A stretch of 64,000 bases of DNA from Candidatus Andersenbacteria bacterium RIFCSPHIGHO2_02_FULL_46_16 (GCA_001817065.1 MHHQ01000005.1:18651-82650), one strand, 5' to 3'. Shown: positions 45,896-62,261, counted from the first letter of the stretch. Made by a program: numbers and translations. The notes: generated by a model from the letters alone, not told the origin.

Positions 45896-47302
45896 ATGAC
45901 TGATGAACAGCTATGGAAGGCAGCGTTGGGTCAGTTGGAGCTTAAAGTAAGTCAGGGAAACTTCTTAACCTGGTTTAAGTCTACTAAGATCCAACACCGA
46001 CAAGGAGGAAAAGTGGTTATTGAAACACCCTCTGCGTTTACGTTCGAGTGGTTATCTAAGAAATATAAAATGCCGATCCTGGAAACCTTACAAGGGCTTG
46101 ACGCGAGTATTATCAACATCGACTTTACGATAAGCTCAGCAACTGCCCGACAAAGAGTACTCAAAAAAAACTTTCGGGTGATGGCTCACAAAGTGGCGAA
46201 AAAAGCACCAACGGAAATAATAGGGGAGGGCAACAAACCAGCAGTAGCGCCAATCGCGGATAGTCAGGCGCAGCGATTAGCTAAAACCCTTAACCCAAAA
46301 TATGTTTTTGATACCTATGTGGTCGGCCCCAGCAACGAAATGGCTCACGCCGCTTGCCGCGCGGTAGCGTCTAAGCCAGGGGAAGCGTATAACCCGCTAT
46401 TTATTTATGGCGGCGTTGGTTTAGGAAAAACCCATTTATTGCAGGCGGTGGGTAATGAGATACTGAAGAACACTCCGTCAGCGAGAGTGTTGTACGCATC
46501 TTCAGAAAAGTTTATTAATGAGTTTGTCCAGTCAATCAAAGAAAGAAGAACCCAGGCCTTTAAACAATATTACCGGGAAGTTGATGTACTAATCATAGAC
46601 GATGTGCAGTTTATGGCGGGTAAAGGGAAGACGCAGGAAGAGCTTTTCCATACATTCAACGCCCTCCATAGTCAGAACATTCAAGTGATCCTGAGTAGCG
46701 ACCGATCACCGCGGGCCATACCTACCCTAGAAGAAAGACTGCGCTCACGATTGTCCGGAGGAATGATTGCCGATATAAAACAACCAGACTACGAAACACG
46801 TTTGGCAATTATCTCAAGTAAAGCAGAGAAGCTTGGCAGCACGATTGACGATGAGTCACTCGCGTACATCGCTAAGAACATTCAAAAGAACGTGCGCGAG
46901 TTGGAAGGAGCCTTAAACCGGGTTATTGCCCACTGTGAGCTAAGTAACAGTAAGGCAAGTTTGGAATACACTAAAAAGATATTGGAGGGGATATTAGAGC
47001 AGTCAAACCAAAAAACGATCGACTCTAAAAGTGTGCTGGAAGTAGTTAGTTTGTACTACAACATGTCGCTTGACGACCTGTGCGGCAAGTCTAGAAAGAA
47101 AGAGATTGTCCGGCCGCGCCAGATTGCGATGTACCTGCTGCGCAAAGAAAATCGCGTTTCTTTTCCAACTATCGGTGATTATTTTGGCGGCCGAGACCAC
47201 ACCACAGCGATGCATGCCTGTGAAAAAATTGAGAAGTTACTCGAACACGACGAAGAGTTATTGCAGGAACTTAACTTTATCAGGGAGCGTCTCTATGCAT
47301 AA
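45896..47302 (+). CDS. dnaA: Chromosomal replication initiator DnaA
   Basis: Walker A 'GGVGLGKTHLLQAVG', 'VDVLIIDDVQF', C-terminal DNA-binding helix. 468 aa. Confidence 0.95.
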   Translation: MTDEQLWKAALGQLELKVSQGNFLTWFKSTKIQHRQGGKVVIETPSAFTFEWLSKKYKMPILETLQGLDASIINIDFTISSATARQRVLKKNFRVMAHKVAKKAPTEIIGEGNKPAVAPIADSQAQRLAKTLNPKYVFDTYVVGPSNEMAHAACRAVASKPGEAYNPLFIYGGVGLGKTHLLQAVGNEILKNTPSARVLYASSEKFINEFVQSIKERRTQAFKQYYREVDVLIIDDVQFMAGKGKTQEELFHTFNALHSQNIQVILSSDRSPRAIPTLEERLRSRLSGGMIADIKQPDYETRLAIISSKAEKLGSTIDDESLAYIAKNIQKNVRELEGALNRVIAHCELSNSKASLEYTKKILEGILEQSNQKTIDSKSVLEVVSLYYNMSLDDLCGKSRKKEIVRPRQIAMYLLRKENRVSFPTIGDYFGGRDHTTAMHACEKIEKLLEHDEELLQELNFIRERLYA

Positions 47303-47604
47303 CGTCAATACCTCAGTAGTTTTATTTCCTGTGGATAGACTGTTAAAAGAAAGGAGAAAAGATGTTGAAAGAGCTAGGGGTAAATATTTAATACACACTG
47401 TTTATGCCCGATTTATTAGTAAAAACCGCCATTTTATCCACGTTTTATCTACTATAAATATTGCTTTACAAGGCTTTATAGCACCGATATCCACATATTT
47501 CCCCTGCTCTACTACTACTACTATATTAATTAACTAGACGTACGTAGAAGCACTGCCTTGTGGGGATAAAGGAAAAGGTTAAATAAAAAACAGATAAAAT
47601 ACCT
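47303..47604. promoter_or_regulatory. Candidate oriC (dnaA-dnaN intergenic): DnaA boxes plus AT-rich unwinding element
   Basis: DnaA-box-like 9-mers CTATCCACA (reverse complement of 47330-47338), TTATCCACG (47434-47442) and ATATCCACA (47487-47495). AT-rich 'tactactactactatattaattaa' block at 47510-47540. Confidence 0.55.
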
Positions 47605-48708
47605 ATGAGATTTATTGGAACACAAAAGAATTTAGTAGAGGGGGTAAGTGCGGTGTCGGCTCTGGCTGGCCGTAATCCACAGCTGCCTATTTTGCAGAAC
47701 GTGCTATTAGAAGTGCGTGATGGAGTTTTGAATTTAACATGTACTGATTTAGAGGTGGGGGCACACGTGACAGTGGTTGGTAAAGCGGAAAAGGAGGGTA
47801 GTGGCGCAGTGTCGGCAAGGCAGTTGTTGGAGTACATACAACAATTGCCTGGTCTGGAGCCGGTGATATTGGAGTTAAAAAAGACTAGCTTAATGGTCTC
47901 AACGAAAAATTTCAGTGCCCAATTTCCAGTTATGGCAGTGGATGATTTTCCGATCCTCCCAATACCGCAAGACAAGGACAGGGTAGTGGTTGATAGCCGC
48001 CTGTTTTGTCAGAGTATTTCTAATACTTTATTTGCCGCAGCAAAGGACGAAACAAGACCTGAGATACATAGCGTGATGGTAAGCGGCGGAGAAGATGAGA
48101 TAAGGGTGGTGGCGACGGACAGTTTTAGGTTGGCGGAGCAGGTTTTGCCTTGGAGTAAGAAGAACAAGGAATTTAGTTTTTTGTTACCAGTAAATGCGGC
48201 GCAGGAGACAGTGAGGTTATTCGGGGGAAAGGATGAATTGGGACTGTTAATTGAACATAATTACATTGCTTTTCAGTCGGAGGGATGTAATCTTTCAGCC
48301 AGACTGATTGATGGTACTTATCCGAATTATCAACAAATAATCCCAAACAAGTTCAACTCTAACTGCGTGGTTGATGTGGAGGAGTTTTTGCGAGCACTGA
48401 AAGTTTTGTCGGTTTTCATTCCGAGGGAGTCTCGGCGGGTGTCTTTAAAGGTGAAACCGGAAAAGGAAACAATAAATATAAAAGTGGAGGGAGGGGAGAG
48501 TGGTTCAGGCGAGGTGGACGTAGGAATAGAAGGAACAGGCAAAGAAGTTGACGTGCTCTTTAATATTCAATATTTATTGGAAGGATTCCAGCACATGGCT
48601 AGCGATCGGTGCGAGATGTCCTTTGGAGGGGCAAGCGATCCCTTGTTGATAAAACCGCACAACAGCTCGGTTAAACAGCTGTACGTAATAATGCCGATAC
48701 AGGCATAG
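47605..48708 (+). CDS. dnaN: DNA polymerase III beta sliding clamp
   Basis: 367 aa, three-domain clamp, follows dnaA. Confidence 0.9.
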   Translation: MRFIGTQKNLVEGVSAVSALAGRNPQLPILQNVLLEVRDGVLNLTCTDLEVGAHVTVVGKAEKEGSGAVSARQLLEYIQQLPGLEPVILELKKTSLMVSTKNFSAQFPVMAVDDFPILPIPQDKDRVVVDSRLFCQSISNTLFAAAKDETRPEIHSVMVSGGEDEIRVVATDSFRLAEQVLPWSKKNKEFSFLLPVNAAQETVRLFGGKDELGLLIEHNYIAFQSEGCNLSARLIDGTYPNYQQIIPNKFNSNCVVDVEEFLRALKVLSVFIPRESRRVSLKVKPEKETINIKVEGGESGSGEVDVGIEGTGKEVDVLFNIQYLLEGFQHMASDRCEMSFGGASDPLLIKPHNSSVKQLYVIMPIQA

Positions 48709-48710
48709 GT

Positions 48711-49901
48711 ATGGATTTAGTTAGAATAAACTTAACGAACTTTAGAAACTTTAGTCCAAAAACTGAAATTGAACTACCGCGGGCTGGTTTGTTAGTGGCG
48801 GCAGCGCCGAACGCGGTGGGAAAAACAAATTTTTTGGAGAGTATTATGGTTTTGCTGAGAGGGAAGACCTGGCGGGCAAGAATTCAGGAATGCGTTAAGT
48901 GGGGCGAAGATAGTTTTTTGTTGGAAGGGGAGATTGAGCGCCAACAGGACAATGATAGCCGGGTGGCGATTCGCTACCATAAACCATCACGTAAAATAAG
49001 GATTGAAGAGGATGGCTTGCCGGCTTCGGTGGTGGCTTTTTATGCCCACTATCCCTTTGTGATGTTTGTGCCAGAGGATACGTTTTTGTTATCGCGCGGT
49101 CCCGCACAACGAAGAAATTTTATCAATCATGTTCTGGTATGTCAGCCTAACTATATAGCTGCTCTGGTGCAGTACTATCGGGTACTGCGGCAGCGTAATG
49201 AAGCATTGAAGAAGGCGCGTAGCGCGGCTGATATTTCGACGTGGACTGACTTACTGGTGGAGTATGCTACTAGCGTGTGGCGCCATCGGGATAATCTGGT
49301 GACTTATTGGAACGACAAAATTAACGAGATGTACCATAGTTTATCTGGTGAAGAGAAGGAGTTTAGTATTAGCTTGGCTTTTGGTACGCGAGACCGCGAA
49401 AGACTGGTGGATGAACTTAATCAGGCTTTTCGCCTAGAGCATCGATATGGCTACACGCTATATGGGCCACACCGGGATGATTTGGTTGTATTAACTAAAC
49501 AAAAGCGAGTGGCAACGGCTTTGTCGGGCGGGCAAATGAAAAGCTTGGTAGTGGCGTTAAAGATATTGTCCCACCGCTATGTGCGGCAGGTGACGAAGGA
49601 AGAGCCGCTGCTTTTGCTGGATGATGTGTTTAGCGAGCTGGACGAGAATAGACAGGTGGCCTTAGTGGAAAATCTACCCAATACCCAGACGATAATAACC
49701 TGTACTGTTTTGCCGGAAGCGTTACGTCGGCGCGAGGGCGTTTATTTATTGGACTTGCGTTCAATTATTCAAGAGAAGGGTCGGGAGAAGAAGTATGTGG
49801 GAACGGGCGTGGCGGGAGAGGCGGCGGTGAGTCCTTTATTGGATGGAGGGGGGAGAGTCAAACAATATCAAACAGAACCGGAAAAAGTGGCGGTAAATTG
49901 A
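48711..49901 (+). CDS. recF: DNA replication and repair protein RecF
   Basis: Walker A 'AAPNAVGKTNFLESI', ABC signature 'LSGGQMKSL', Walker B 'LLLDDVFSELD'. 396 aa, which is C-terminally extended. Confidence 0.85.
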   Translation: MDLVRINLTNFRNFSPKTEIELPRAGLLVAAAPNAVGKTNFLESIMVLLRGKTWRARIQECVKWGEDSFLLEGEIERQQDNDSRVAIRYHKPSRKIRIEEDGLPASVVAFYAHYPFVMFVPEDTFLLSRGPAQRRNFINHVLVCQPNYIAALVQYYRVLRQRNEALKKARSAADISTWTDLLVEYATSVWRHRDNLVTYWNDKINEMYHSLSGEEKEFSISLAFGTRDRERLVDELNQAFRLEHRYGYTLYGPHRDDLVVLTKQKRVATALSGGQMKSLVVALKILSHRYVRQVTKEEPLLLLDDVFSELDENRQVALVENLPNTQTIITCTVLPEALRRREGVYLLDLRSIIQEKGREKKYVGTGVAGEAAVSPLLDGGGRVKQYQTEPEKVAVN

Positions 49902-49902
49902 T

Positions 49903-50166
49903 ATGACAAAGAGCCTAGCCGAGATAATGAAACTGTCCCGGGTGGGGATTGATGAGTTTGATGTGCGGTACTGGGTGCAGCGGTATGTGGAGGGTTTGTT
50001 GGGGGGAGGGGTGCGTTGCAGGGAAGTAAAGGGTGGACGAATGGTGTTGGTGGCTGAGTCGGCCTGTTTGCGCCAAGAGCTTTATTTGTTGAAGGAAGAT
50101 CTGCGGGTAGCGGTACAGCAAAACACGGGATATGAAGCAAGAGAGATCGAGGTTGGGTATCTATAG
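49903..50166 (+). CDS. DUF721/DciA-like small protein (recF-downstream)
   Basis: 87 aa in the position occupied by DUF721 (YaaB/DciA-like) genes in dnaA-dnaN-recF operons. The motif match is weak. Confidence 0.45.
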   Translation: MTKSLAEIMKLSRVGIDEFDVRYWVQRYVEGLLGGGVRCREVKGGRMVLVAESACLRQELYLLKEDLRVAVQQNTGYEAREIEVGYL

Positions 50167-50171
50167 AAGGG

Positions 50172-53039
50172 TTAGTCGATTGTGACGGTGTGTTTGGCGG
50201 ATTCGGTGGTGTTGCCTGTTTTGTCATAAGCAATGGCGAAGACCGTATAAGTGCCTGGTCCAGGTGAGTCAGGCCAGATGATTTCGTAGCGGTTGGGGAT
50301 GGTGGAATGTGGGTTAGTAGTGCGTCCGATTCGTTTAGTTCCAGGGTCTCCTTCTTTGGTATAGAGGACGTCGATGATATCAATGCCGCTGCTGTCGTTG
50401 GCGGTTACCTTGGCGGTAAGAGGGAAGTTGGTGGCCTTAAGGGTGGAGCCGTTGGTAGGAGTATGTAAGGTAACAGACGGGGGGCTGTCGTCCGGGTTAA
50501 TAATAAAGGTCCGATGGGCGCGGCCAATCAAATTGTCTTCAGTGATAGCCATAATTAACACTGTTTTGCGACCAGAGAAGGAGGACTCGAAAGTCAGGTC
50601 AGCAGTAAGGGGATCGTCAGGTTTTCTGACGGCTACCTCTCGACCATCAATCAGGAAGCGTACTTCCTTGATCTTTTTAGGAGAATCCACTTCGGCCTTA
50701 ATGGTGGTGGGACTATCGGTCAATACAGTGGTATTAGGTTCGGTGATAGAAACTTTAGGCAAATCCTCGGCATTATGAGTGCCGCATTCTAGGATAGGCA
50801 GGGAGTCGGTATACTGGGGTTCTTCTGGTTTGTCCTTACTTTCCGCATTGTGCTTCAGGCGCCACCTGGTGACGCTTTCCTCCCAGCGGTTGAATTGCCC
50901 GTCGTTTTCAGCGTTAGACGGGGCGGCGCCTAGGGGGTGAGCACGAGAAATATAAAACAATATACTATGAATCTCCTTGAAGGTGGTTGGCCGGCCAATG
51001 GCCACAGGACAGTCTAAAGAATAAACCACATTACTGTCAGGGTCCCATTTGCCTTTAACTTCCGGGATCTCTCCACGCAAAATGGCGTGCGGGACATTTT
51101 TGGTCGGTTCAGGTGGCACAAAGGTTTCGATCGGAGTGCCTTCGAGGGCTTGTTTGAAGAAGGTGTTCCAAATGGGGGCGGCGGTGAGAGAGCCGTCGGA
51201 ACGTTTACCCATAGGTGAGTTGTCGTTGTTGCCCGTCCAAACACCGGCGACTAGGCTGGGCGTATAACCAAGCGTCCATCCGTCGCGAAAGTCTTGGGTG
51301 GTGCCAGTTTTAGCGGCGACCGGTCGGCTACCTAAATTAAGATAATTATTGGGACCGAAGGTGGCGGATCGAGTGAAATTGTCCGACAAGACATTAGAGA
51401 CGGTTCTGGCCAATTGGGCAGTGATGACTTGTTGTCCCACGAGTTCTTCTTGGGTGGCATCAAAGAGGGTTTCTTCGTGGTCGGCTGTTTTGAGAATGGA
51501 GCGAAGGGGCTGGCGAACGCCGTCATTGGCGAAGACACCATAAGCGGAAACCTCGTCTAGTAAAGTAACTTCACCGCCACCTAGAACTAACGACAAACCG
51601 TATCGGTCCGGATCATTTAGTGATGACATCCCCATGGCTTGGGCAAGGTCGGTAGCTTCTTTGACCCCGGCCAAGTACAGGGTTTTTACGGCGGGGATGT
51701 TCAGTGAGTTAGATAGGGCGAACCGCATAGAAACAGGCCCGCGTTCCGAGAGGTTGTAGTTTTTGGGTTGGTAGCCTTGGCCAAAGTCGGTTTCAGCATC
51801 TATCAAAATAGTTTCTGGGGTATAGCCTTTTTTCCAGGCAGCGGCATAAACAAATGGTTTTATAGAGGAACCAGGTGAGCGATGGCGAATAGCTACGTTA
51901 ACATTTCCGTCGATTTCTTCATTAAAATAATCAACCGAACCAGCCATGGCGAGAATGTCACCGTTTTTGGGGTCGATGGCAACCAAGGCGGCGTTTGAGG
52001 CGCCTTGCCCTCGGAGTTTTTCCTGCTGCTTTTTGAGGGTGTCCTCGGCGATTGTCTGCAGCCGCATGTCGAGAGTGGTCGTAACTACCAGGCCGCCTTG
52101 CTCAACAACTCGTTCGCCATATTCCTGATCAAGTTGTTGTTTGACGTAGAAGACAAAATGAGGCGCCGAAATAGCTTCAGCCCGCGGTCGAAAATCTAGC
52201 GGCTCTTGTTTGGCCTGCTCAGCTTCCTGTTCGTTGATAAATTTTAAGTTGACCATGCGGTTTAAGATAGATTCCTGGCGGCTTTTCAAGTCTTCAAAGT
52301 GAGACCCGTACGGAGAGTAGTAGGTGGGTGCTTTAGGGAGAGCAGCGACAATAGTGGCTTGAGCTAAGGTGAGGTCTGCAGCAGAGCGGCCAAACAAAGT
52401 TTGTGAGGCAGCTTCTACTCCATAAGATTGGCTGCCGTAAGGAATCTCATTGAGGTACATGGCCAATATTTCCTCTTTACTGAGACGTTGCTCTAGCTCC
52501 ATAGCCAGAACGGCCTCTTTAACTTTGCGGCGGATGGTTCTTTCGGGGGTTAAGATAGAATTTTTAATTAGTTGCTGGGTGATAGTGGAGCCACCTTGAG
52601 CGCGTGAACCACTTAAGGGCTTGAGGATTACACCACGAGCGATGCCTTTTAAATCAATACCGTGGTGTTCAAAAAACTGATCATCTTCAGCGGTGACTGT
52701 CGCATTAATGAGGTGTTTAGCAATACGGTCTAGCGAGACGGTCGTGCGGCGTACCTCACCGATCTCATAAAGAAGGTGGGTGCCAGTGCGGTCATAGATT
52801 TTGGTGGATTGAACAACTTGTCGTGAATTTATTTTTTGGGGGTCGGGTAAGTCGCGGCTCCACCATAAAACAATTGTGGCAAAGGCAAGTAAGCCAAGGC
52901 CAAGCAACCCCAGAGTAATTGGCACAAGCCGAAAACGTAGGCGACGCAAGGAGGAGGGCACAATTAATTTACCGGGGCGGCGGGTGCGCCGCTCGTGATA
53001 TTTATCAGGCGTTCGATTGGTTAGGCGGCGAATAGCCAT
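50172..53039 (-). CDS. Class A penicillin-binding protein (PBP1A: glycosyltransferase + transpeptidase) with C-terminal beta-rich extension
   Basis: GT51 motifs 'TAEDDQFFEHHGID', 'GGSTITQQLIKN'. Transpeptidase 'SPGSSIKPF' (SxxK) and 'KTGTT'. About 250-aa C-terminal Ig-like extension. Confidence 0.85.
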   Translation of the reverse strand: MAIRRLTNRTPDKYHERRTRRPGKLIVPSSLRRLRFRLVPITLGLLGLGLLAFATIVLWWSRDLPDPQKINSRQVVQSTKIYDRTGTHLLYEIGEVRRTTVSLDRIAKHLINATVTAEDDQFFEHHGIDLKGIARGVILKPLSGSRAQGGSTITQQLIKNSILTPERTIRRKVKEAVLAMELEQRLSKEEILAMYLNEIPYGSQSYGVEAASQTLFGRSAADLTLAQATIVAALPKAPTYYSPYGSHFEDLKSRQESILNRMVNLKFINEQEAEQAKQEPLDFRPRAEAISAPHFVFYVKQQLDQEYGERVVEQGGLVVTTTLDMRLQTIAEDTLKKQQEKLRGQGASNAALVAIDPKNGDILAMAGSVDYFNEEIDGNVNVAIRHRSPGSSIKPFVYAAAWKKGYTPETILIDAETDFGQGYQPKNYNLSERGPVSMRFALSNSLNIPAVKTLYLAGVKEATDLAQAMGMSSLNDPDRYGLSLVLGGGEVTLLDEVSAYGVFANDGVRQPLRSILKTADHEETLFDATQEELVGQQVITAQLARTVSNVLSDNFTRSATFGPNNYLNLGSRPVAAKTGTTQDFRDGWTLGYTPSLVAGVWTGNNDNSPMGKRSDGSLTAAPIWNTFFKQALEGTPIETFVPPEPTKNVPHAILRGEIPEVKGKWDPDSNVVYSLDCPVAIGRPTTFKEIHSILFYISRAHPLGAAPSNAENDGQFNRWEESVTRWRLKHNAESKDKPEEPQYTDSLPILECGTHNAEDLPKVSITEPNTTVLTDSPTTIKAEVDSPKKIKEVRFLIDGREVAVRKPDDPLTADLTFESSFSGRKTVLIMAITEDNLIGRAHRTFIINPDDSPPSVTLHTPTNGSTLKATNFPLTAKVTANDSSGIDIIDVLYTKEGDPGTKRIGRTTNPHSTIPNRYEIIWPDSPGPGTYTVFAIAYDKTGNTTESAKHTVTID

Positions 53040-53136: not shown

Positions 53137-54513
53137 TTATAGCCTTTTGGTTGGATCGACGAGAAAGCCTTTAAGGTCACGGCGGCCAATAATCATGTTG
53201 TATTTCATATGCGAACGATCGGCAATGAAAGCCTTAGTCTTGATTTGGCGGTCTCGTAGACGAAGGGTGAGTTCAATAACGGGGCGTTTTTCTTTACCAA
53301 GTGCACCTCGGACGGGAACTTTTTTGTCTTGGACTAGGCGGGTGTGCAGGTGGTGTTTTCGGGCCAGCAGTTCATCTATAGTTGTACGCCAGGCACCAGT
53401 GTCTACTTTGGCAGCGATAGTGTGGGAATGACCGTCGGCGTCTAAGATTTCTACGGTTTCATGCACACCTAGAATTAGATGACCGGAGACATCCTCGATT
53501 TCTTGCTCAACTTCTCCCCCAAAAAGATTTTGACCGAGACGAACGCCACGCTCAGGGGTAGACACCGTCAAGTCTTCCACGCGTTTAAGGCGAGAGAGTA
53601 GGGGGGCCATATTGGCGAGCTGGATTTCTAGGCCGGGCTTGGCGTTAATCTCCAGGACGGTGGGACCATCGTCACGGTCGAGGGCGATATCGACACCGGA
53701 GTAGGCTAAGCCAAGGGCTTGGGCGGATTTGGTGGCGAGGAGTAGTGATTGCTTCCAGTGCGGTATGTGAAGGCCCGACAGGTTGAGTCGTGAACCAGGG
53801 AGGTTTTCAATAACATGTCCGCGGTGGATGGCGGTGGTGGTAATGCCACAGGCAAGGTCAATGCCAATCCCGATGCCGCCTGCATGTAAATTGGCTTTGC
53901 CGTGAGACTCCAAGGTAGGCAGACGAAGCATCGCCATAATCGGCACGTGGTTGTAAACAACAATACGTAAATCCGCCACGCCTTGTTTGGAGTAAGGTTT
54001 AAGGTCGGGGTGGTTTTTTATCCGCTGCTCAAAAAGAGCAACATCGGGGATGTTGGACGGGGAGAAATTTCCATCGAGCGTATCAAGGACGTGTTTGCGA
54101 AGCTGGGGGATAAATATTTCGGTTTTATCGGCTTTAACCCAGTTACCTTTTTTGTTGCGACCAAAAATGACGATGATGCCTTCGCCGCCATAAGAAGAAC
54201 GGGGCTTAATAACGAAGGAGGCGGGAAGTTTAGTCCAACGGAAGCGCGCGAGCTCCTGCCGATTTTTAATGGCGGCATAGAGCCGTGGGGTGGGTAGGCC
54301 AGAGCGCTGCAGCAACTTTTTGGTAGCAAGTTTATCCTGAGCAATTTTTGAACCGGTTGAGATGAGGCTGTGTCCAGTATAGCGGAGGGAACGTGCATTA
54401 AGGCCAAGAAGTTGGCGGGAGGTTTTACGGAAGGCGTTTGGCATGGCGAAGTAGTTCGCGGAAGCGGAAATATTCCGTAATGCGTAAGCCGCCCCATTGT
54501 CCGAGAGCGACAT
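53137..54513 (-). CDS. RimK-like ATP-grasp ligase fused to a C-terminal retropepsin-like ('putative ATP-dependent zinc protease', DTGA) domain
   Basis: ATP-grasp motifs 'VIKPRSSYGGEGI', 'ADLRIVVY', 'GKANLHAGGIG'. C-terminal 'AAKVDTGAWRTTI…GRRDLKGFLVDP' has the aspartyl-protease DTGA motif. The track start overlaps the upstream gene by 89 nt; an internal ATG at 54444 reduces this to 20 nt. Confidence 0.65.
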   Translation of the reverse strand: MSLSDNGAAYALRNISASANYFAMPNAFRKTSRQLLGLNARSLRYTGHSLISTGSKIAQDKLATKKLLQRSGLPTPRLYAAIKNRQELARFRWTKLPASFVIKPRSSYGGEGIIVIFGRNKKGNWVKADKTEIFIPQLRKHVLDTLDGNFSPSNIPDVALFEQRIKNHPDLKPYSKQGVADLRIVVYNHVPIMAMLRLPTLESHGKANLHAGGIGIGIDLACGITTTAIHRGHVIENLPGSRLNLSGLHIPHWKQSLLLATKSAQALGLAYSGVDIALDRDDGPTVLEINAKPGLEIQLANMAPLLSRLKRVEDLTVSTPERGVRLGQNLFGGEVEQEIEDVSGHLILGVHETVEILDADGHSHTIAAKVDTGAWRTTIDELLARKHHLHTRLVQDKKVPVRGALGKEKRPVIELTLRLRDRQIKTKAFIADRSHMKYNMIIGRRDLKGFLVDPTKRL

Positions 54514-55978
54514 TAATTGGAACGGTCAGTAAGATTATTTCTGGATAAGACAGGATCAGGGTGCGGAATAATTCTGAGCTAACAATAAAGTAACAGATAG
54601 TAGAAAGGACGAGTGTCCAGGCGGTGATGGTTAAAGCAGAGCGGACGCCTAGTTTGAATTGAGCAGCAATAAACTCCTCAGCCAAAATAGTGAGAATGAG
54701 AGCAGGAAAGATGGAAAAGGAGAGAATAGAGTTCTGATTATTAGCTACGCCAAACCCGAGAAGGAGCAATAAGCTCAAGCTGACGCTGGTGAGGACTAAA
54801 GCCATACGAGGGAGATACAACAGCCGCAGACGACGAAGCACTGATCGGGTGAGGGTGCCAGAGATGACAATGACAACAAAGACAATCAGGCCGTAAGTTA
54901 GACCCATAACTAAGAAGGAGAGAGTCGTCATAGCGGGAGTGATTAGACCAAACGATTTAATGCCAACAACCTGTCGGGCAAAAGCCAAGATGGTAGCAAT
55001 TACTGGTAACATCAAGATGAGGACAATACTATTAATAGGAATGCCGCGGTTGATCAGGAAGTTGATACCAAAAGACATGAAATTAGTCAGACCTAAGTCA
55101 GACACCGTACGAGCACTAAACTGACCTAAGAGCCGATGTTCGGTGGCAGAGGAGAGAACGACTGTCTTGGCTTCCTCGGGGGTGGTGGTGGTAGAAAGGG
55201 CATCAAGTAGCAGAGGACGAGTAAGCAGGATATAGTTAGGTTGGAGTTGGTCGAAGGCGGACTGAGCGGTGGGGGTAAGAACGCCAAACGGAGTTTCAGA
55301 TAAAAGAACAATACCTTTGTCAGTAAAAGAGGCAGAGTCCTGCGGCAGGTTCTCGGTTGGTTTAATATGTTGGGCAAACTTGGTCAGCACATTTGCGCCC
55401 ACACCACCGGAGGTCCACATGATGATCAAGTGAGACTGGTTAAGAGAGGGGCGCAGATCGAGCAGCTGGCTAGTTAAGTCCTCTTCGATGAGAACTTCTG
55501 GTTGCCCGCTTTTGGCGTGAACTGTGAGTAGTAACACGCCAGCGTCCGCAGCGTGCTGGCGGCTTGTTTCTATCTGGTCGTCTGAGGCGTTATTGTCTAA
55601 AACAAGAACGATCAAGTGATGGAAGACGCGGATTTCTTTGGTGTCTTCATAGATGTTTTGATCAGTGGTGACTTTAAGCTTGACTAAGTAGGAGGCTTGT
55701 TTGCTGTATGCGTGATTTACTTTGCTGCCAGTAGCGCTGGTACCATCACCAAAATCCCAAACAATTCCTTCAACGGTTTCAGAGCCGAGGCTGCTTACTT
55801 GGCTATCAAAACTAAGTGGCTGACCGACAATAGCGTCGCGGGCTGTGCCAGCGCTAATATTAAGCGAGGGTTCATTGGTTGTGTCGGCGTCCTGGTTGTT
55901 TGCTTGGGCAAAGACTAAACCTGGCAATATAAACAAAAGCGGCAGGGACAGGAATAGTAAGATAAGTTTTTTTGGCAT
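54425..55978 (-). CDS. Secreted PKD-domain protein fused to a C-terminal multi-TM domain (7TM 'inactive-transglutaminase-associated' type inferred from context)
   Basis: Signal peptide. PKD motif 'WDFGDGTSATGSKVNHAYSKQASYLVKLKV'. Central soluble domain and a C-terminal region with about 7 TM helices. Confidence 0.5.
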   Translation of the reverse strand: MPKKLILLFLSLPLLFILPGLVFAQANNQDADTTNEPSLNISAGTARDAIVGQPLSFDSQVSSLGSETVEGIVWDFGDGTSATGSKVNHAYSKQASYLVKLKVTTDQNIYEDTKEIRVFHHLIVLVLDNNASDDQIETSRQHAADAGVLLLTVHAKSGQPEVLIEEDLTSQLLDLRPSLNQSHLIIMWTSGGVGANVLTKFAQHIKPTENLPQDSASFTDKGIVLLSETPFGVLTPTAQSAFDQLQPNYILLTRPLLLDALSTTTTPEEAKTVVLSSATEHRLLGQFSARTVSDLGLTNFMSFGINFLINRGIPINSIVLILMLPVIATILAFARQVVGIKSFGLITPAMTTLSFLVMGLTYGLIVFVVIVISGTLTRSVLRRLRLLYLPRMALVLTSVSLSLLLLLGFGVANNQNSILSFSIFPALILTILAEEFIAAQFKLGVRSALTITAWTLVLSTICYFIVSSELFRTLILSYPEIILLTVPINVALGQWGGLRITEYFRFRELLRHAKRLP

Positions 55979-55999: not shown

Positions 56000-56488
56000 T
56001 TACGCTGAAATGTTATGTAATTGGTATTTATTGTCAACAAGACAAAGTGCGGCGGCTAAAGCATCAGCCGCATCGTCCGGTTGGGGTAGGTTATTTAAAT
56101 GGAGGCGGCCTTGGATGGCTTGTTGCACTTGTTTTTTGTCAGCATGACCGAAACCAGTAATTTGCGACTTGATTTGCAGAGGGGTGAGTGAATAAACTGG
56201 GACGTGATGAAAGCGCAGCAGATAAGAAAACACCCCGCGGGCCTGGGCGGTTAGCATGGCAGTGCTGGTGTTAGTATTAAAGAATATTTGTTCAATGACG
56301 GCCACATCGGGGCGGTATTGTTTAATGAGGACGGATAAGTCCTGACCTAATTGCAGTAAACGGTCGGCGGTGGAAAGGATGGGCTTTGTGGTCAGGCAAC
56401 CACAACTAACAAAAATTTGCGACTGCTTGGTGTTGAGCAGGCCATAGCCGGTGCGTGCTAAGCCGGGATCGAGGCCGAGGATGATCAT
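56000..56488 (-). CDS. ruvC: Holliday junction resolvase RuvC
   Basis: 'IILGLDPGLARTGYGL' and catalytic acidic residues. 162 aa. Confidence 0.85.
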   Translation of the reverse strand: MIILGLDPGLARTGYGLLNTKQSQIFVSCGCLTTKPILSTADRLLQLGQDLSVLIKQYRPDVAVIEQIFFNTNTSTAMLTAQARGVFSYLLRFHHVPVYSLTPLQIKSQITGFGHADKKQVQQAIQGRLHLNNLPQPDDAADALAAALCLVDNKYQLHNISA

Positions 56489-57104: not shown

Positions 57105-57797
57105 TTAATTAGTCGGCGCGGACGATGTGATAATCTCTGCTTGCTGGGCAATAATCAGGCTGTTGATAACTTGGGGGACAGTATTGATGGAGACGAGCCC
57201 AATGGTTGGTCCGTTAATGAAACTGTCGGTGAGACGACATGGTGTCTGGGACTGGAATAAACCGACGGACCCTCGATAGATTTTAGTTTGGCTGATGGCG
57301 ACGTGACTATTGGGCAGGCAACTGATGGCCGGGGAGGCATCGTTGATGGAAACGTGTTGCAGATCAATACTGGCTTGTGGTTGGGCCATGAGGCCAAGCC
57401 AGGTTTGGTTGAGGGGATGTTTTTCGTTGGACTGGAAAGTGATCGGAAGGGTGCTGGTTCCTTGGGCAAATAAACGACCATCAACAACTAGGGCGGTGTT
57501 TTCGGCGGCAAATATTTTAACACCCGGCTCAACGGTAACCGTAACTAAAGGATTAATGCGGGTGGTATTAACTAAGAGATACGGATTATGGCTAGCAGTG
57601 AGAGTTATGTTTTCCCGAATCACCGAAGGCAAGAAGATGCCGGTGGTAAAGAGAGGGGTGTGATAGTCGGGCTGGACAATAAATTCTGGTAAATAGAGAC
57701 GACTTTGCCAGTCGGTAGGAAATTTGTGTTCAATAGCGACAGCGAGCGGGAGTAAAAATAAGGCAAGAGTAATTAAGAGAGTGGGCAGGTGACGCAT
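57105..57797 (-). CDS. Secreted hypothetical protein
   Basis: Signal peptide 'LLITLALFLLPLAVA'. Beta-rich, no motif. Confidence 0.45.
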   Translation of the reverse strand: MRHLPTLLITLALFLLPLAVAIEHKFPTDWQSRLYLPEFIVQPDYHTPLFTTGIFLPSVIRENITLTASHNPYLLVNTTRINPLVTVTVEPGVKIFAAENTALVVDGRLFAQGTSTLPITFQSNEKHPLNQTWLGLMAQPQASIDLQHVSINDASPAISCLPNSHVAISQTKIYRGSVGLFQSQTPCRLTDSFINGPTIGLVSINTVPQVINSLIIAQQAEIITSSAPTN

Positions 57798-60266: not shown

Positions 60267-62261
60267 ATGGAGGGGAATCTACAACCAGATTTTTTTAGCG
60301 TAGGAGCGCGAGTAACTTCAGCGGCAGCATTGGCTGTTTTTTTGTTGTTAGGATTACCGCTGTTGGTGTCGGCTAGCGAGGCAGACGTGGTGATTAACGA
60401 ATTGATGTGGGACGGTGAAGAATATGTTGAGCTGTTCAATCAAACAGGGCAGGAGATTAGTTTGGCAGGGTGGACTTTAACTCGGCAACAGGCAGGCGGC
60501 GAGGTAAAGGAACTTGTGGAATGGGAGGAGGAAGACGAGCTAGGGGCTGGTGAATATTATTTACTGGAAAGCAAGGAAGAAGCGACAACGGTGATAGCGG
60601 ATAAGGTGGACTCGAGTGTCATGCTGGTTAATACAGGAGAGCTGATTACTTTGTGGGATGCGCAGAAGAATATGGTGGACCAGGCCAACCGGCTTGGTGG
60701 GTGGTTTGCCGGAGACGGTAAGACAGAGAAAGCGATGGAGAGGACGGCGGCGGGGAGCGACGGTCTAATAGCTAGCAGCTGGCATACGTCAACCGGCGAG
60801 ACGGGTGGGCGACTCGGAACGCCAAAACAGATAAATAGTCAGCCTCATATTAACGAGGCGCCGGAGGCGGCAATGACTGCGCCGAGCAGCGGATTGGTAG
60901 GGGAGCAATTAATTTTCACAGCGGAGGATGCGAGCGATGCAGAGGATGACGATTTAACATATGAGTGGACAATGGGTGACGATACTGTCCTGAGTGGAGT
61001 GGAGGTAGCGCATAGCTATAATCGAGCGGGAACGTTTGCGGTAGAAGTAACCGTGTCGGATGGGCAGGCAGAAGATAAGGTGGTGAGTGAAGTCGTCATA
61101 AAAGAGCCAGAATATTCAGACGAAATCATTGTTAATGAGTGGCTGCCTGACCCGGTAGGGAATGATGCCGAGGGAGAGTTTATTGAATTAAAAAATAAAG
61201 GGAATAAGCTGGTTGATTTAGCAGGTTGGCAGCTGGATGACGGGGAAGGAGGAAGTGCTGAGTATGTTATTCCGGCGGGAGTAAAAATTGCGGCAGGGGA
61301 AATTAAATTATTTAAGCGGGAAGAGACTGGGCTTGCATTAAATAATAGCAGTGACAGTGTGCGGCTGAAGGATCCGTTAGGACGGATCAAAGCAGAGCAA
61401 GGTTATGAAACAACTAAAGAAGGGTACTCTTTTAACTGGAAGGTGGACGGTAGTCCATTACTTAGCACGACGCCAACACCCGGGTTGGCAAATAATATAA
61501 CAGTGCCGGTTAACGAAGAAGAAGTTGATGAGGAGGAAGACGAGAGGGCCCTGGCAGTTAAAGGTGTGGTGGCAGGGAGTAAAATAACTAAAATCGTTTT
61601 AGCGCAGGTGAGGCAAGAGGAAAAAGGGGCGATGGTGGAGGTAGTTGGTGTGGTGAGCGTACCGCCCGGGGTGTTGGGGGACAGAGTAATTTATTTGTCT
61701 GGTTCTGGGGTGCAGGTATATTTATCTAAGGCAGATTGGCCAAAAATTAACCTGGGTGACACGATTAGGCTAACGGGAGAAGTATCGGCAAGCAGCGGAG
61801 AGACAAGGCTTAAGTTGGCACAAGCGAGCGATATCACAATTACCAGCAAAGGGGCTGCGCCACAACCGCATCGTCTGGAGACGGGTGAGGTGGGGGAGGA
61901 AACGGAAGGATGGCTGGTAACGATACAAGGAAAGGTAACAGAGACTAGCGGGGATACTTTTTATATGGATGATGGCAGCGGTGAGACAAGGGTATACATT
62001 AAGTCTTCAACCAAGATAGATAAGCCGCAAATGAAAAAGGGGGCTGTGGTAACGGTGACCGGAGTTGTTTCAGAAACGAGTAGCGGCTATCGGGTGTTGC
62101 CGAGATGGCAGGAAGATGTGCGGCTAGGGTTGGTGGCTGGCATGACAAGTTTTCCGGCGACGGGTGGAGAAAGCAGTTGGCTGATGATTGCAGTGGGGAT
62201 GGCGGTGTGGCTGTTAAAGGGAGCGCGGCAAAAAGGGGAGCCGCTGGTTAGGAATTGGTAA
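60267..62261 (+). CDS. Secreted protein with two lamin-tail domains (LTD) and a PKD domain, C-terminal membrane anchor
   Basis: LTD signatures 'VVINELMWDGEEYVELFNQTGQEISLAGWTL' and 'IIVNEWLPDPVGNDAEGEFIELKNKGNKLVDLAGWQL'. PKD-like 'TYEWTMGDDTVLSGVEVAHSYNRAGTFAVEVTVSDG'. C-terminal TM segment. Confidence 0.65.
   Translation: MEGNLQPDFFSVGARVTSAAALAVFLLLGLPLLVSASEADVVINELMWDGEEYVELFNQTGQEISLAGWTLTRQQAGGEVKELVEWEEEDELGAGEYYLLESKEEATTVIADKVDSSVMLVNTGELITLWDAQKNMVDQANRLGGWFAGDGKTEKAMERTAAGSDGLIASSWHTSTGETGGRLGTPKQINSQPHINEAPEAAMTAPSSGLVGEQLIFTAEDASDAEDDDLTYEWTMGDDTVLSGVEVAHSYNRAGTFAVEVTVSDGQAEDKVVSEVVIKEPEYSDEIIVNEWLPDPVGNDAEGEFIELKNKGNKLVDLAGWQLDDGEGGSAEYVIPAGVKIAAGEIKLFKREETGLALNNSSDSVRLKDPLGRIKAEQGYETTKEGYSFNWKVDGSPLLSTTPTPGLANNITVPVNEEEVDEEEDERALAVKGVVAGSKITKIVLAQVRQEEKGAMVEVVGVVSVPPGVLGDRVIYLSGSGVQVYLSKADWPKINLGDTIRLTGEVSASSGETRLKLAQASDITITSKGAAPQPHRLETGEVGEETEGWLVTIQGKVTETSGDTFYMDDGSGETRVYIKSSTKIDKPQMKKGAVVTVTGVVSETSSGYRVLPRWQEDVRLGLVAGMTSFPATGGESSWLMIAVGMAVWLLKGARQKGEPLVRNW

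Follow-up and report, generated by a model that had tools for sequence, protein, structure and literature searches.

A two-gene relative of the Rlo system in Patescibacteria: a 7TM membrane protein encoded beside an ATP-grasp ligase–retropepsin fusion

We analysed a 64,000-nucleotide stretch of DNA from Candidatus Andersenbacteria bacterium RIFCSPHIGHO2_02_FULL_46_16 (GCA_001817065.1, MHHQ01000005.1:18651-82650), hereafter the window. Our focus was a pair of overlapping genes, A and B, on the minus strand between positions 53137 and 55978. The original prediction, made from sequence, described gene A as a secreted PKD domain followed by a multi-helix membrane protein. Gene B was described as an ATP-grasp enzyme with a C-terminal retropepsin carrying a DTGA motif. 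Both descriptions hold. Gene A encodes a signal peptide and matches the Pfam families PKD_4 and PF14402. Gene B matches PF14397 and PF05618 above the gathering score, and encodes KVDTGA. The system is known in kind. It is a rearranged and stripped-down relative of the Rlo system of Pseudomonas, in which RloA is the retropepsin, RloB the membrane protein and RloC the ligase. The pair is a distinct, phylum-wide variant and not a new class. The features are listed below, with residue numbers in amino acids (aa). Domain calls derive from Pfam, from open reading frames (ORFs) and from AlphaFold models, the confidence of which is given as the predicted local distance difference test (pLDDT).

54425..55978, minus strand: gene A, 517 aa; signal peptide, PKD domain, flavodoxin-like domain and 7TM_transglut domain (ORF, Pfam)
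55907..55978, minus strand: signal peptide of gene A, aa 1-24, MPKKLILLFLSLPLLFILPGLVFA followed by QA (hydropathy peak at residues 1-27)
55622..55861, minus strand: PKD domain, aa 40-119, predicted extracytoplasmic (PKD_4; AlphaFold beta-sandwich)
55124..55618, minus strand: middle ectodomain, aa 121-285, flavodoxin-like alpha/beta fold (AlphaFold pLDDT >90)
54500..55093, minus strand: 7TM_transglut membrane domain, aa 296-493 (PF14402, hydrophobic segments, loop charge)
54428..54499, minus strand: basic C-terminal helix of gene A, GLRITEYFRFRELLR, carrying the signature G-x3-GLR-x2-E-x2-RF
54425..54444, minus strand: overlap of genes A and B, 20 nucleotides (nt); gene A stop codon TAA at 54427..54425, gene B start codon ATG at 54444..54442
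53137..54513, minus strand: gene B, longest ORF, 458 aa
53137..54444, minus strand: gene B from the homology-supported start, 435 aa; RloC-like ATP-grasp domain and RimB/RloA-like retropepsin
53521..54357, minus strand: ATP-grasp ligase domain, aa 30-308 of the 435-aa protein (PF14397)
53473..53520, minus strand: disordered acidic linker, GGEVEQEIEDVSGHLI (pLDDT <50 at residues 311-324; translation checked)
53152..53472, minus strand: retropepsin-like aspartic peptidase domain, aa 325-431 (PF05618)
53392..53403, minus strand: catalytic DTGA, D348-T-G-A (translation)

The product of gene A starts with a hydrophobic segment followed by A-Q, and both are kept in the alignment of the family. Cleavage of the signal peptide would probably occur between MPKKLILLFLSLPLLFILPGLVFA and QA. 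The next domain matches PKD_4 at residues 42-117 (E = 3.9e-14) and qualifies as a PKD domain, being a beta-sandwich with the WDFGDG motif. The middle ectodomain matched no sequence family. Its fold is receiver-like or binding-protein-like, and conserved residues lie in its loops, at D128 and in a glycine-rich WTSGxVGxN (188-196). Invariant residues (D128, T189-x-G191-x-x-G194, Q203 and Q239) were also observed at positions that form ligand-binding loops in such folds.

The membrane domain is the best-conserved part of gene A. In the alignment of Andersenbacteria proteins, LLYLPRMAL, LAEEF, SYPE and the C-terminal GLRxTEYxRFR are invariant. Pfam family 7TM_transglut (PF14402) matches residues 319-509 (E = 1.8e-28). 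The NCBIfam model for RloB (NF052267) aligns only at residues 318-511, with 76.6 bits against a cut-off of 900, and the part of the model that is matched is its C-terminal half. It had been envisaged that this domain might instead match an unrelated transporter family. None was matched, the similarity being to PF14402 and to the C-terminal half of RloB. Searches of gene A against transglutaminase families gave no match at E up to 1. At least 120 full-length homologues of gene A, among the matches listed, have the same Pfam content.

The charges of the loops between membrane segments alternate, with values of +2.0, +4.4 and +1.9 against approximately 0, and the C-terminal tail carries +4.3. Because the N-terminal signal peptide and PKD domain are secreted, and because basic loops alternate, gene A probably has an outside N-terminus, seven helices and an inside C-terminus. 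Its cytoplasmic face would be strongly basic. The C-terminal GLRxxExxRF helix thus probably lies in the cytoplasm, where the ligase may dock on it. The AlphaFold (AF2) model of gene A was built on 49 homologues. The PKD and alpha/beta domains are confident but the helical membrane domain is not (pLDDT 55-72). Hence, the 7TM model was used only as a rough guide to helix count.

More than 100 homologues of gene B are approximately 435 aa long and align from the second methionine. The true start of gene B is therefore taken to be the ATG at 54444..54442; gene callers in the nearest relatives picked the same start. An overlap of 20-89 nt between the genes had been predicted. This is accurate, since the overlap is 20 nt from the second methionine and 89 nt if the longest ORF is used. 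Translational coupling, suggested on the same grounds, is plausible, but it cannot be called a conserved feature because the overlap is missing in many relatives.

The original prediction called the ligase RimK-like. The ATP-grasp assignment is sound, with ATPgrasp_ST (PF14397) matching at E = 3.8e-61, but the attribution to RimK itself is not. The Pfam RimK match (E = 7e-10) spans 39 residues only, TIGR00768 (RimK) scores 47.8 bits against a cut-off of 143.4, and the Rimk_N pre-ATP-grasp domain (PF18030) has no match in gene B. TIGR02291 (RloC-type) gives 235 bits, below its cut-off of 314, with E = 8.8e-70 over model positions 9-313 of 317. Judged by these family comparisons, the ligase belongs to ATPgrasp_ST and is closer to the RloC type than to RimK proper. 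In structural comparison, using an AF2 monomer model of gene B (pLDDT 80), the best Foldseek matches for the ligase domain were RimK (5zct/7qys, E ~1e-10). Cyanophycin synthetase, ArgX/LysX and Ddl followed.

Conservation within gene B was assessed using 47 homologues of 57-80% identity. Ligase residues K80, G86/G87/G89, E139-Q140-R141, D158, R160, N185, D252, E265 and N267 are invariant, and H187 is conserved in at least 90%. These include the hallmarks of ATP-grasp amidoligases: the ATP-binding lysine (K80), the glycine-rich loop and Mg-binding E265-x-N267. In addition, LEINAKPG of gene B aligns with MEVNASPG of RimK. Within the peptidase domain, D348, G350, A351, I418, G420 and D423 are invariant, and the threonine of DTGA is present in at least 90%. 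Hence, the domain carries the retropepsin hallmarks, namely a DTGA preceded by lysine (KVDTGA, encoded at 53392-53409) and a C-terminal hydrophobic-G-R-D/N motif (I418-x-G420-x-x-D423). Given these invariant catalytic residues, both enzyme domains are predicted to be catalytically intact.

The peptidase domain scores 35 bits with the Zn_protease/RimB-like family PF05618 (gathering score 27). Its best sequence matches in the PDB are RloA (9G58/9G59) and 2pma. The profile of the gene B family likewise found RimK structures and both RloA crystal structures (9G58, 9G59). As predicted, therefore, the DTGA region aligns with bacterial retropepsin-like domains. The NCBIfam models for RloA (NF052262-4) give at most 35.5 bits, against cut-offs of at least 210, and that for RimB gives 18.8 against 200. 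The domain has ten conserved Lys/Arg positions and a net charge of +5.4, and is free of cysteine in 46 of the 47 homologues. Hydropathy analysis of gene B found neither a signal peptide nor a transmembrane segment. The peptidase is therefore predicted to be cytoplasmic. The acidic linker that joins it to the ligase reads EVEQEIED here and EIEEELEE in Portnoybacteria-type loci. The pattern E-x-E[EQ]E[LI]E[ED] is kept in both of these large clades but not in the most divergent fusions (Kaiserbacteria/Paceibacterota-type). Such a linker might serve as a pseudo-substrate or be cleaved, or might simply be a spacer.

Hundreds of full-length homologues, with 52-100% identity, were found for each of the two proteins. 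Named homologues of both belong to Candidatus Andersenbacteria, within Patescibacteria/Parcubacteria. We surveyed loci from one genome per species and obtained 79 that encode the full-length fusion, with 41-95% identity to the window. These loci derive from Andersenbacteria, Portnoybacteria, Spechtbacteria, Blackburnbacteria, Kaiserbacteria, Paceibacterota and other Patescibacteria. Their ORFs were scanned with domain profiles built from the window's family, and 75 loci had enough upstream sequence to be assessed. In all 75, a 7TM_transglut gene lies directly upstream of the fusion, while the flanking genes change. Taken with the strong E-values and the many full-length homologues, this argues that the domain matches in genes A and B are not due to chance.

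The upstream gene takes several forms. It comprises PKD, middle domain and 7TM at 34 of the 75 loci, and a bare 7TM of approximately 220 aa at 33. At seven loci the 7TM has another N-terminal extension of approximately 100-130 aa, and at one the gene is interrupted by a contig end. The PKD ectodomain is found mainly in Andersenbacteria; other lineages mostly have the bare ~220-aa 7TM, and many proteins of the bare type occur in Moranbacteria and Gracilibacteria as well. Since the ectodomain and the flanking genes vary among loci, the conserved unit is the 7TM core plus the ligase–peptidase fusion. The PKD/flavodoxin-like ectodomain is a later, lineage-specific addition.

Two loci of the survey deserve separate mention. 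A metagenome-assembled genome (MAG) labelled 'uncultured Gammaproteobacteria' (L073, CAYIUF010000022.1) has a Patescibacteria-type bare 7TM gene and a fusion of 44% identity; possible causes are mislabelling, a binning error or horizontal transfer. A single ORF with 7TM, ATP-grasp and retropepsin domains (L067:5275-7344) was rejected as an artefact, two genes having been joined through a stretch of masked bases (N, translated as X). Had the triple fusion been real, it would have placed the 7TM C-terminus in the cytoplasm beyond doubt.

The three domains also occur in other arrangements. Compared with 1.84 billion representative proteins, the peptidase domain matched only 573 clusters at E up to 1e-3. 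Architectures were obtained from Pfam scans and gene contexts of selected matches. Briefly, we found ATPgrasp_ST–retropepsin, the same fusion with an added MATCAP domain, the published RimBK hybrid, and a signal peptide–retropepsin–7TM protein accompanied by a separate ATPgrasp_ST gene. In the last of these, the ATPgrasp_ST gene follows the retropepsin–7TM gene with an overlap of 4 nt. Hence, as in the window, the same three domains are divided between two adjacent, overlapping genes. The 7TM motifs, including GLRxxExxRF, are also the same. The difference lies in the peptidase, which is attached to the outer, N-terminal end of the 7TM domain, with a signal peptide or membrane anchor ahead of it, and is thus placed on the opposite side of the membrane. 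The data therefore put the peptidase outside in some lineages, but on the inner side of the membrane in Patescibacteria. Across all arrangements the 7TM domain has a common signature: a proline in helix 1, R..vG..fG, a membrane glutamate and the C-terminal G-x3-GLR-x2-E-x2-RF. The C-terminal element is invariant in Andersenbacteria, in Patescibacteria and in the retropepsin–7TM fusions (one of them from an Actinomycetota MAG). Because the three components occur separately and in two different pairwise fusions, they are likely to work together.

Individual examples were as follows. Signal peptide–retropepsin–7TM_transglut fusions are encoded at L083:2124-3392 (an Actinomycetota MAG) and L086:2275-3459 (L086/L087, other MAGs), and are present as proteins P0385, P0431, P0461 and P0365. 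In P0365, two retropepsin domains stand in tandem and may form a pseudo-dimer within one chain. An expanded module in a Patescibacteria MAG (L084:1870-10678, GCA_964391305.1; also L085) includes an 800-aa ATP-grasp–retropepsin–MATCAP carboxypeptidase fusion. Its order is yebC, ruvC, PKD–7TM, ligase–retropepsin–MATCAP, ATP-grasp, RimK-like, MATCAP and ATP-grasp, which suggests a multi-enzyme pathway for building and trimming peptides. At two Portnoybacteria-type loci (L038:7320-8231 and L052:8279-9145), a RimK-like ligase gene (Rimk_N and RimK) is located just downstream of the fusion. Hence, two different ligases are paired with one peptidase there. Finally, in P0366 (539 aa) a RimB-like retropepsin comes after a class I lysyl-tRNA synthetase domain, and P0473 (688 aa) has ATP-grasp and retropepsin domains followed by a YdjC-like domain. 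Each is either a real fusion or a gene-calling error.

Iyer, Abhiman, Burroughs and Aravind, in Mol Biosyst in 2009, reportedly predicted an amidoligase–peptidase–7TM system of the same domain content. Presumably, PF14397 and PF14402 are derived from that prediction. The gene pair had been matched to this three-domain system, described as experimentally uncharacterised. The match is good, but the description no longer holds. A three-gene form, the rloABC operon of P. aeruginosa, has been characterised by genetics and structure determination (Lormand et al., mBio 2025, PMC12239564), and the biochemistry of RimK and RimB has been examined too (Little et al., JBC 2025, PMC11957791). RloA proteins are secreted retropepsins that cut runs of at least eight glutamates (PMC12239564). 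Loss of rloA1-3 causes hypo-osmotic sensitivity, sensitivity to antibiotics (beta-lactams), and defects in biofilm and shape; deletion of rloB or rloC suppresses the loss (PMC12239564). RloB is reported to be 96% proteobacterial (PMC12239564).

RloABC and the window share a PF14402 7TM domain, an ATPgrasp_ST ligase (RloC-like in the window) and a PF05618 retropepsin with DTGA, all encoded in one gene cluster. RloA has a basic substrate channel and the window peptidase domain is basic. Both have a cytoplasmic ligase and a membrane protein whose N-terminal domain is outside the cytoplasm, as predicted here from topology. There are also clear differences. Where Rlo has an inactive transglutaminase, the window has PKD and flavodoxin-like domains, and most Patescibacteria have nothing. 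RloA is secreted, whereas the window peptidase is unsecreted and attached to the C-terminus of the ligase. Periplasmic RloA has a conserved disulfide cysteine pair, which is missing from cytosolic RimB and from the window peptidase. The window has two genes, Pseudomonas three, and each of the three NCBIfam Rlo models falls far short of its cut-off. The host, moreover, is a candidate-phyla bacterium.

The Rim systems provide the second comparison. RimK and RimB put poly-glutamate tails on ribosomal protein S6 (RpsF) and take them off (PMC11957791). Together they also make free poly-alpha-glutamate of up to 28-36 residues, and efficient synthesis requires RimB, which needs about six consecutive glutamates to cut (PMC11957791). 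The RimBK hybrid, an active protein reported chiefly from Flavobacteriales and Rhodobacterales, has its peptidase at the N-terminus, ahead of a true RimK (PMC11957791). As in RimK/RimB and RimBK, the window has a cytoplasmic ATP-grasp ligase paired or fused with a cytoplasmic, cysteine-free retropepsin, and RimK is the best structural match. However, the window ligase belongs to ATPgrasp_ST, is RloC-like and lacks Rimk_N. Its peptidase is C-terminal (residues 325-431 of 435) instead of N-terminal as in RimBK. Rim systems are without a 7TM membrane partner, while the window-type fusion always has one. It had been suggested that the PKD variant and the fusion order may be novel. Literature searches with the Pfam names, with Patescibacteria and ATP-grasp, and for newer Rlo work found no description of the Patescibacteria variant. 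Neither trait is peculiar to the window, since the PKD form is Andersenbacteria-wide and the fusion extends across Patescibacteria.

We favour, with modest confidence, the interpretation that the gene pair is the Patescibacteria two-gene version of the Rlo/Rim class of ATP-grasp ligase and retropepsin, and acts on an acidic peptide. The ligase would be held against the basic inner face of the 7TM protein, where the C-terminal GLRxxExxRF helix may dock it. At the membrane it would consume ATP to polymerise an acidic peptide, most likely poly-alpha-L-glutamate, either free or bound to an acceptor. By analogy with retroviral proteases, the fused retropepsin would act as a dimer and cut the chain endoproteolytically. 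As with RimB and RimK, cutting would keep the ligase turning over and set the length of the product. The product, or a signal reporting on it, would then reach the cell surface by way of the 7TM protein, moving either through the membrane or along it. An accessory, lineage-specific role would fall to the PKD/flavodoxin-like ectodomain, and the peptidase would work on the cytoplasmic side of the membrane, opposite to Pseudomonas Rlo.

Three lines of evidence connect genes A and B functionally: adjacency at 75 of 75 loci, pairwise fusions elsewhere, and suppressor genetics in the Pseudomonas operon. Such suppression is what one would expect if the product of RloB and RloC were harmful unless cleaved by RloA. 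Acidic-peptide chemistry is proposed because RimB and RloA are specific for runs of glutamate, because RimK with RimB makes poly-alpha-glutamate, because the peptidase has K-x-DTGA and ten basic positions, and because relatives have added MATCAP domains. A cytoplasmic location for the peptidase is argued by the lack of both a signal peptide or transmembrane segment in gene B and RloA-type disulfide cysteines. The variable membrane side of the peptidase fits a role in chain release.

Several points weigh against this interpretation. Glutamate specificity is an extrapolation from known systems, gene B being below the NCBIfam cut-offs for RloC-type, RloA and RimB proteins. We know of no transport activity for the 7TM domain, which AF2 modelled with little confidence (pLDDT 55-72, as above). 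Export by the 7TM protein is thus conjecture. A ligase and a peptidase within one cytoplasmic protein could serve reversible protein modification equally. Finally, a run of at least eight glutamates is encoded nowhere in the 64-kb window, so no substrate was found there. Under the favoured model, an encoded poly-glutamate substrate is unnecessary.

A more specific proposal is that the 7TM_transglut protein is the membrane channel of a hitherto unrecognised, synthase-coupled system for secreting an anionic polymer, poly-alpha-glutamate. The ligase would feed the chain into it from the cytoplasmic side and the retropepsin would release the chain. The polymer would become part of the cell surface, held or presented by the ectodomain. 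If release could take place both outside and inside, this would account for a peptidase that is outside in Rlo and in the retropepsin–7TM fusions but inside in Patescibacteria. We consider this doubtful and offer it tentatively.

The best of the alternatives is a reversible protein-tagging switch. Here, the ligase would add tails of glutamate or another peptide to S6, or to a membrane or envelope protein, and the peptidase would remove them. The 7TM domain and ectodomain would form a sensor that adjusts the balance of the two activities to external conditions, and nothing would be exported. RimK and RimB work in this way on RpsF and, as in Rim, the ligase and peptidase of gene B are both predicted to be cytoplasmic. 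The ectodomain varies by lineage while the cytoplasmic 7TM face is invariant, as would suit a sensor with a constant output surface. The receiver-like or binding-protein-like middle ectodomain, with its conserved loop residues, points the same way. However, at 33 of the 75 assessable loci the 7TM is bare and has no sensing ectodomain. The ligase, moreover, is RloC-like and without the RimK N-terminal domain. Pseudomonas shows no genetic interaction between its Rlo and Rim systems, and RloA has its site of action beyond the cytoplasm (PMC12239564). We regard a tagging switch as possible rather than probable.

The genes that flank the pair bear on a second alternative. Four long related contigs have the gene order of the window: a beta-helix protein, (yebC), ruvC, gene A, gene B, PBP1A, a small ORF, recF, dnaN and dnaA. 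In every Andersenbacteria locus, the PBP1A gene is at most 211 nt downstream of the pair on the same strand, and a scan of the coding strand detected no terminator-like site in the interval that separates it from gene B. A promoter-like site closely precedes gene A (56037..56010, minus strand), although sites of this kind are no more numerous in the region than chance would give. In the second alternative, a cell-wall or surface-glycan ligase, the enzyme would add amino acids to a precursor of peptidoglycan or of another envelope component, acting with PBP1A, and the 7TM protein would be a membrane scaffold or flippase. Pfam calls the ligase family 'sugar-transfer associated', Ddl is among the structural matches, and Rlo mutants have cell-shape and beta-lactam phenotypes (PMC12239564). 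Conversely, PBP1A immediately follows the pair only in Andersenbacteria. Elsewhere it is 1.8-5.7 kb away or was not found in the stretch examined, and the 7TM–fusion pair is intact. Because the adjacency is limited to Andersenbacteria, we treat the PBP1A link as lineage synteny. This explanation also leaves the invariant basic retropepsin domain unaccounted for, and the structurally closest enzymes are poly-alpha-glutamate synthetases, not Mur or Ddl. We consider it unlikely.

Third, gene B could encode a self-processing polyprotein, in which the retropepsin frees itself at the acidic linker to give a separate RloC-like ligase and a peptidase. Retropepsins (family A2) classically auto-process, and the linker is disordered, acidic and kept in two large clades. 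However, it has at most three consecutive glutamates, compared with the approximately six needed by RimB and the eight needed by RloA, and in the most divergent fusions it is not acidic. Self-processing is therefore very unlikely as an explanation; it is also compatible with the favoured model and so is no true alternative. Chance adjacency of two unrelated genes, for which the tight packing of Patescibacteria genomes and the synteny of the whole ruvC-to-dnaA neighbourhood within Andersenbacteria might speak, is effectively refuted, since the pair is kept in 75 of 75 assessable loci down to 41% identity with neighbours changing on both sides, the same domains are fused in other combinations elsewhere, and the homologous Pseudomonas genes interact genetically (PMC12239564).

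A role in anti-phage defence was also considered, and was rejected because PADLOC gave no match. Other parts of the window can be described briefly. Positions 45896-53039 look origin-proximal: they contain a 468-aa ORF at the position of dnaA in related loci, dnaN, recF, an 87-aa ORF and, on the opposite strand, PBP1A. This order is kept in related contigs, and the 468-aa ORF was placed by position alone. The 87-aa ORF (49903-50166) has a sub-threshold match to DciA (19.8 bits against 24). On the other side of the pair, a 230-aa secreted protein (57105-57797, minus strand) has no Pfam match; it is a conserved neighbour, labelled Beta_helix_4 in relatives. Positions 60267-62261 (plus strand) encode a 664-aa protein with lamin-tail, PKD and OB-fold domains and the short acidic runs EEEDE and DEEEDE, and this protein is conserved in related loci.

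Many public metagenome assemblies contain the variant, annotated with generic names; what is presented here is comparative and predictive. It bears on the function of RloB and RloC in Pseudomonas, where osmotic tolerance, beta-lactam sensitivity and biofilm formation are concerned. First, the transglutaminase-like domain is dispensable, since many lineages keep only the ~220-aa 7TM core. Second, the peptidase is able to function inside as well as outside the membrane. The minimal two-protein system (~220 aa and 435 aa) makes the function of RloB and RloC testable, and singles out D348, K80, the membrane glutamate of LAEEF and the C-terminal GLRxxExxRF helix as targets for mutation. The 7TM–ligase–peptidase triad also reaches beyond Proteobacteria. 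It has a fixed place beside ruvC in many Patescibacteria lineages, ruvC preceding the pair in both Andersenbacteria-type and bare-7TM loci. Patescibacteria have very small genomes and ultra-small cells, and are probably episymbiotic. Retention of the triad in such small genomes argues for a basic cellular role.

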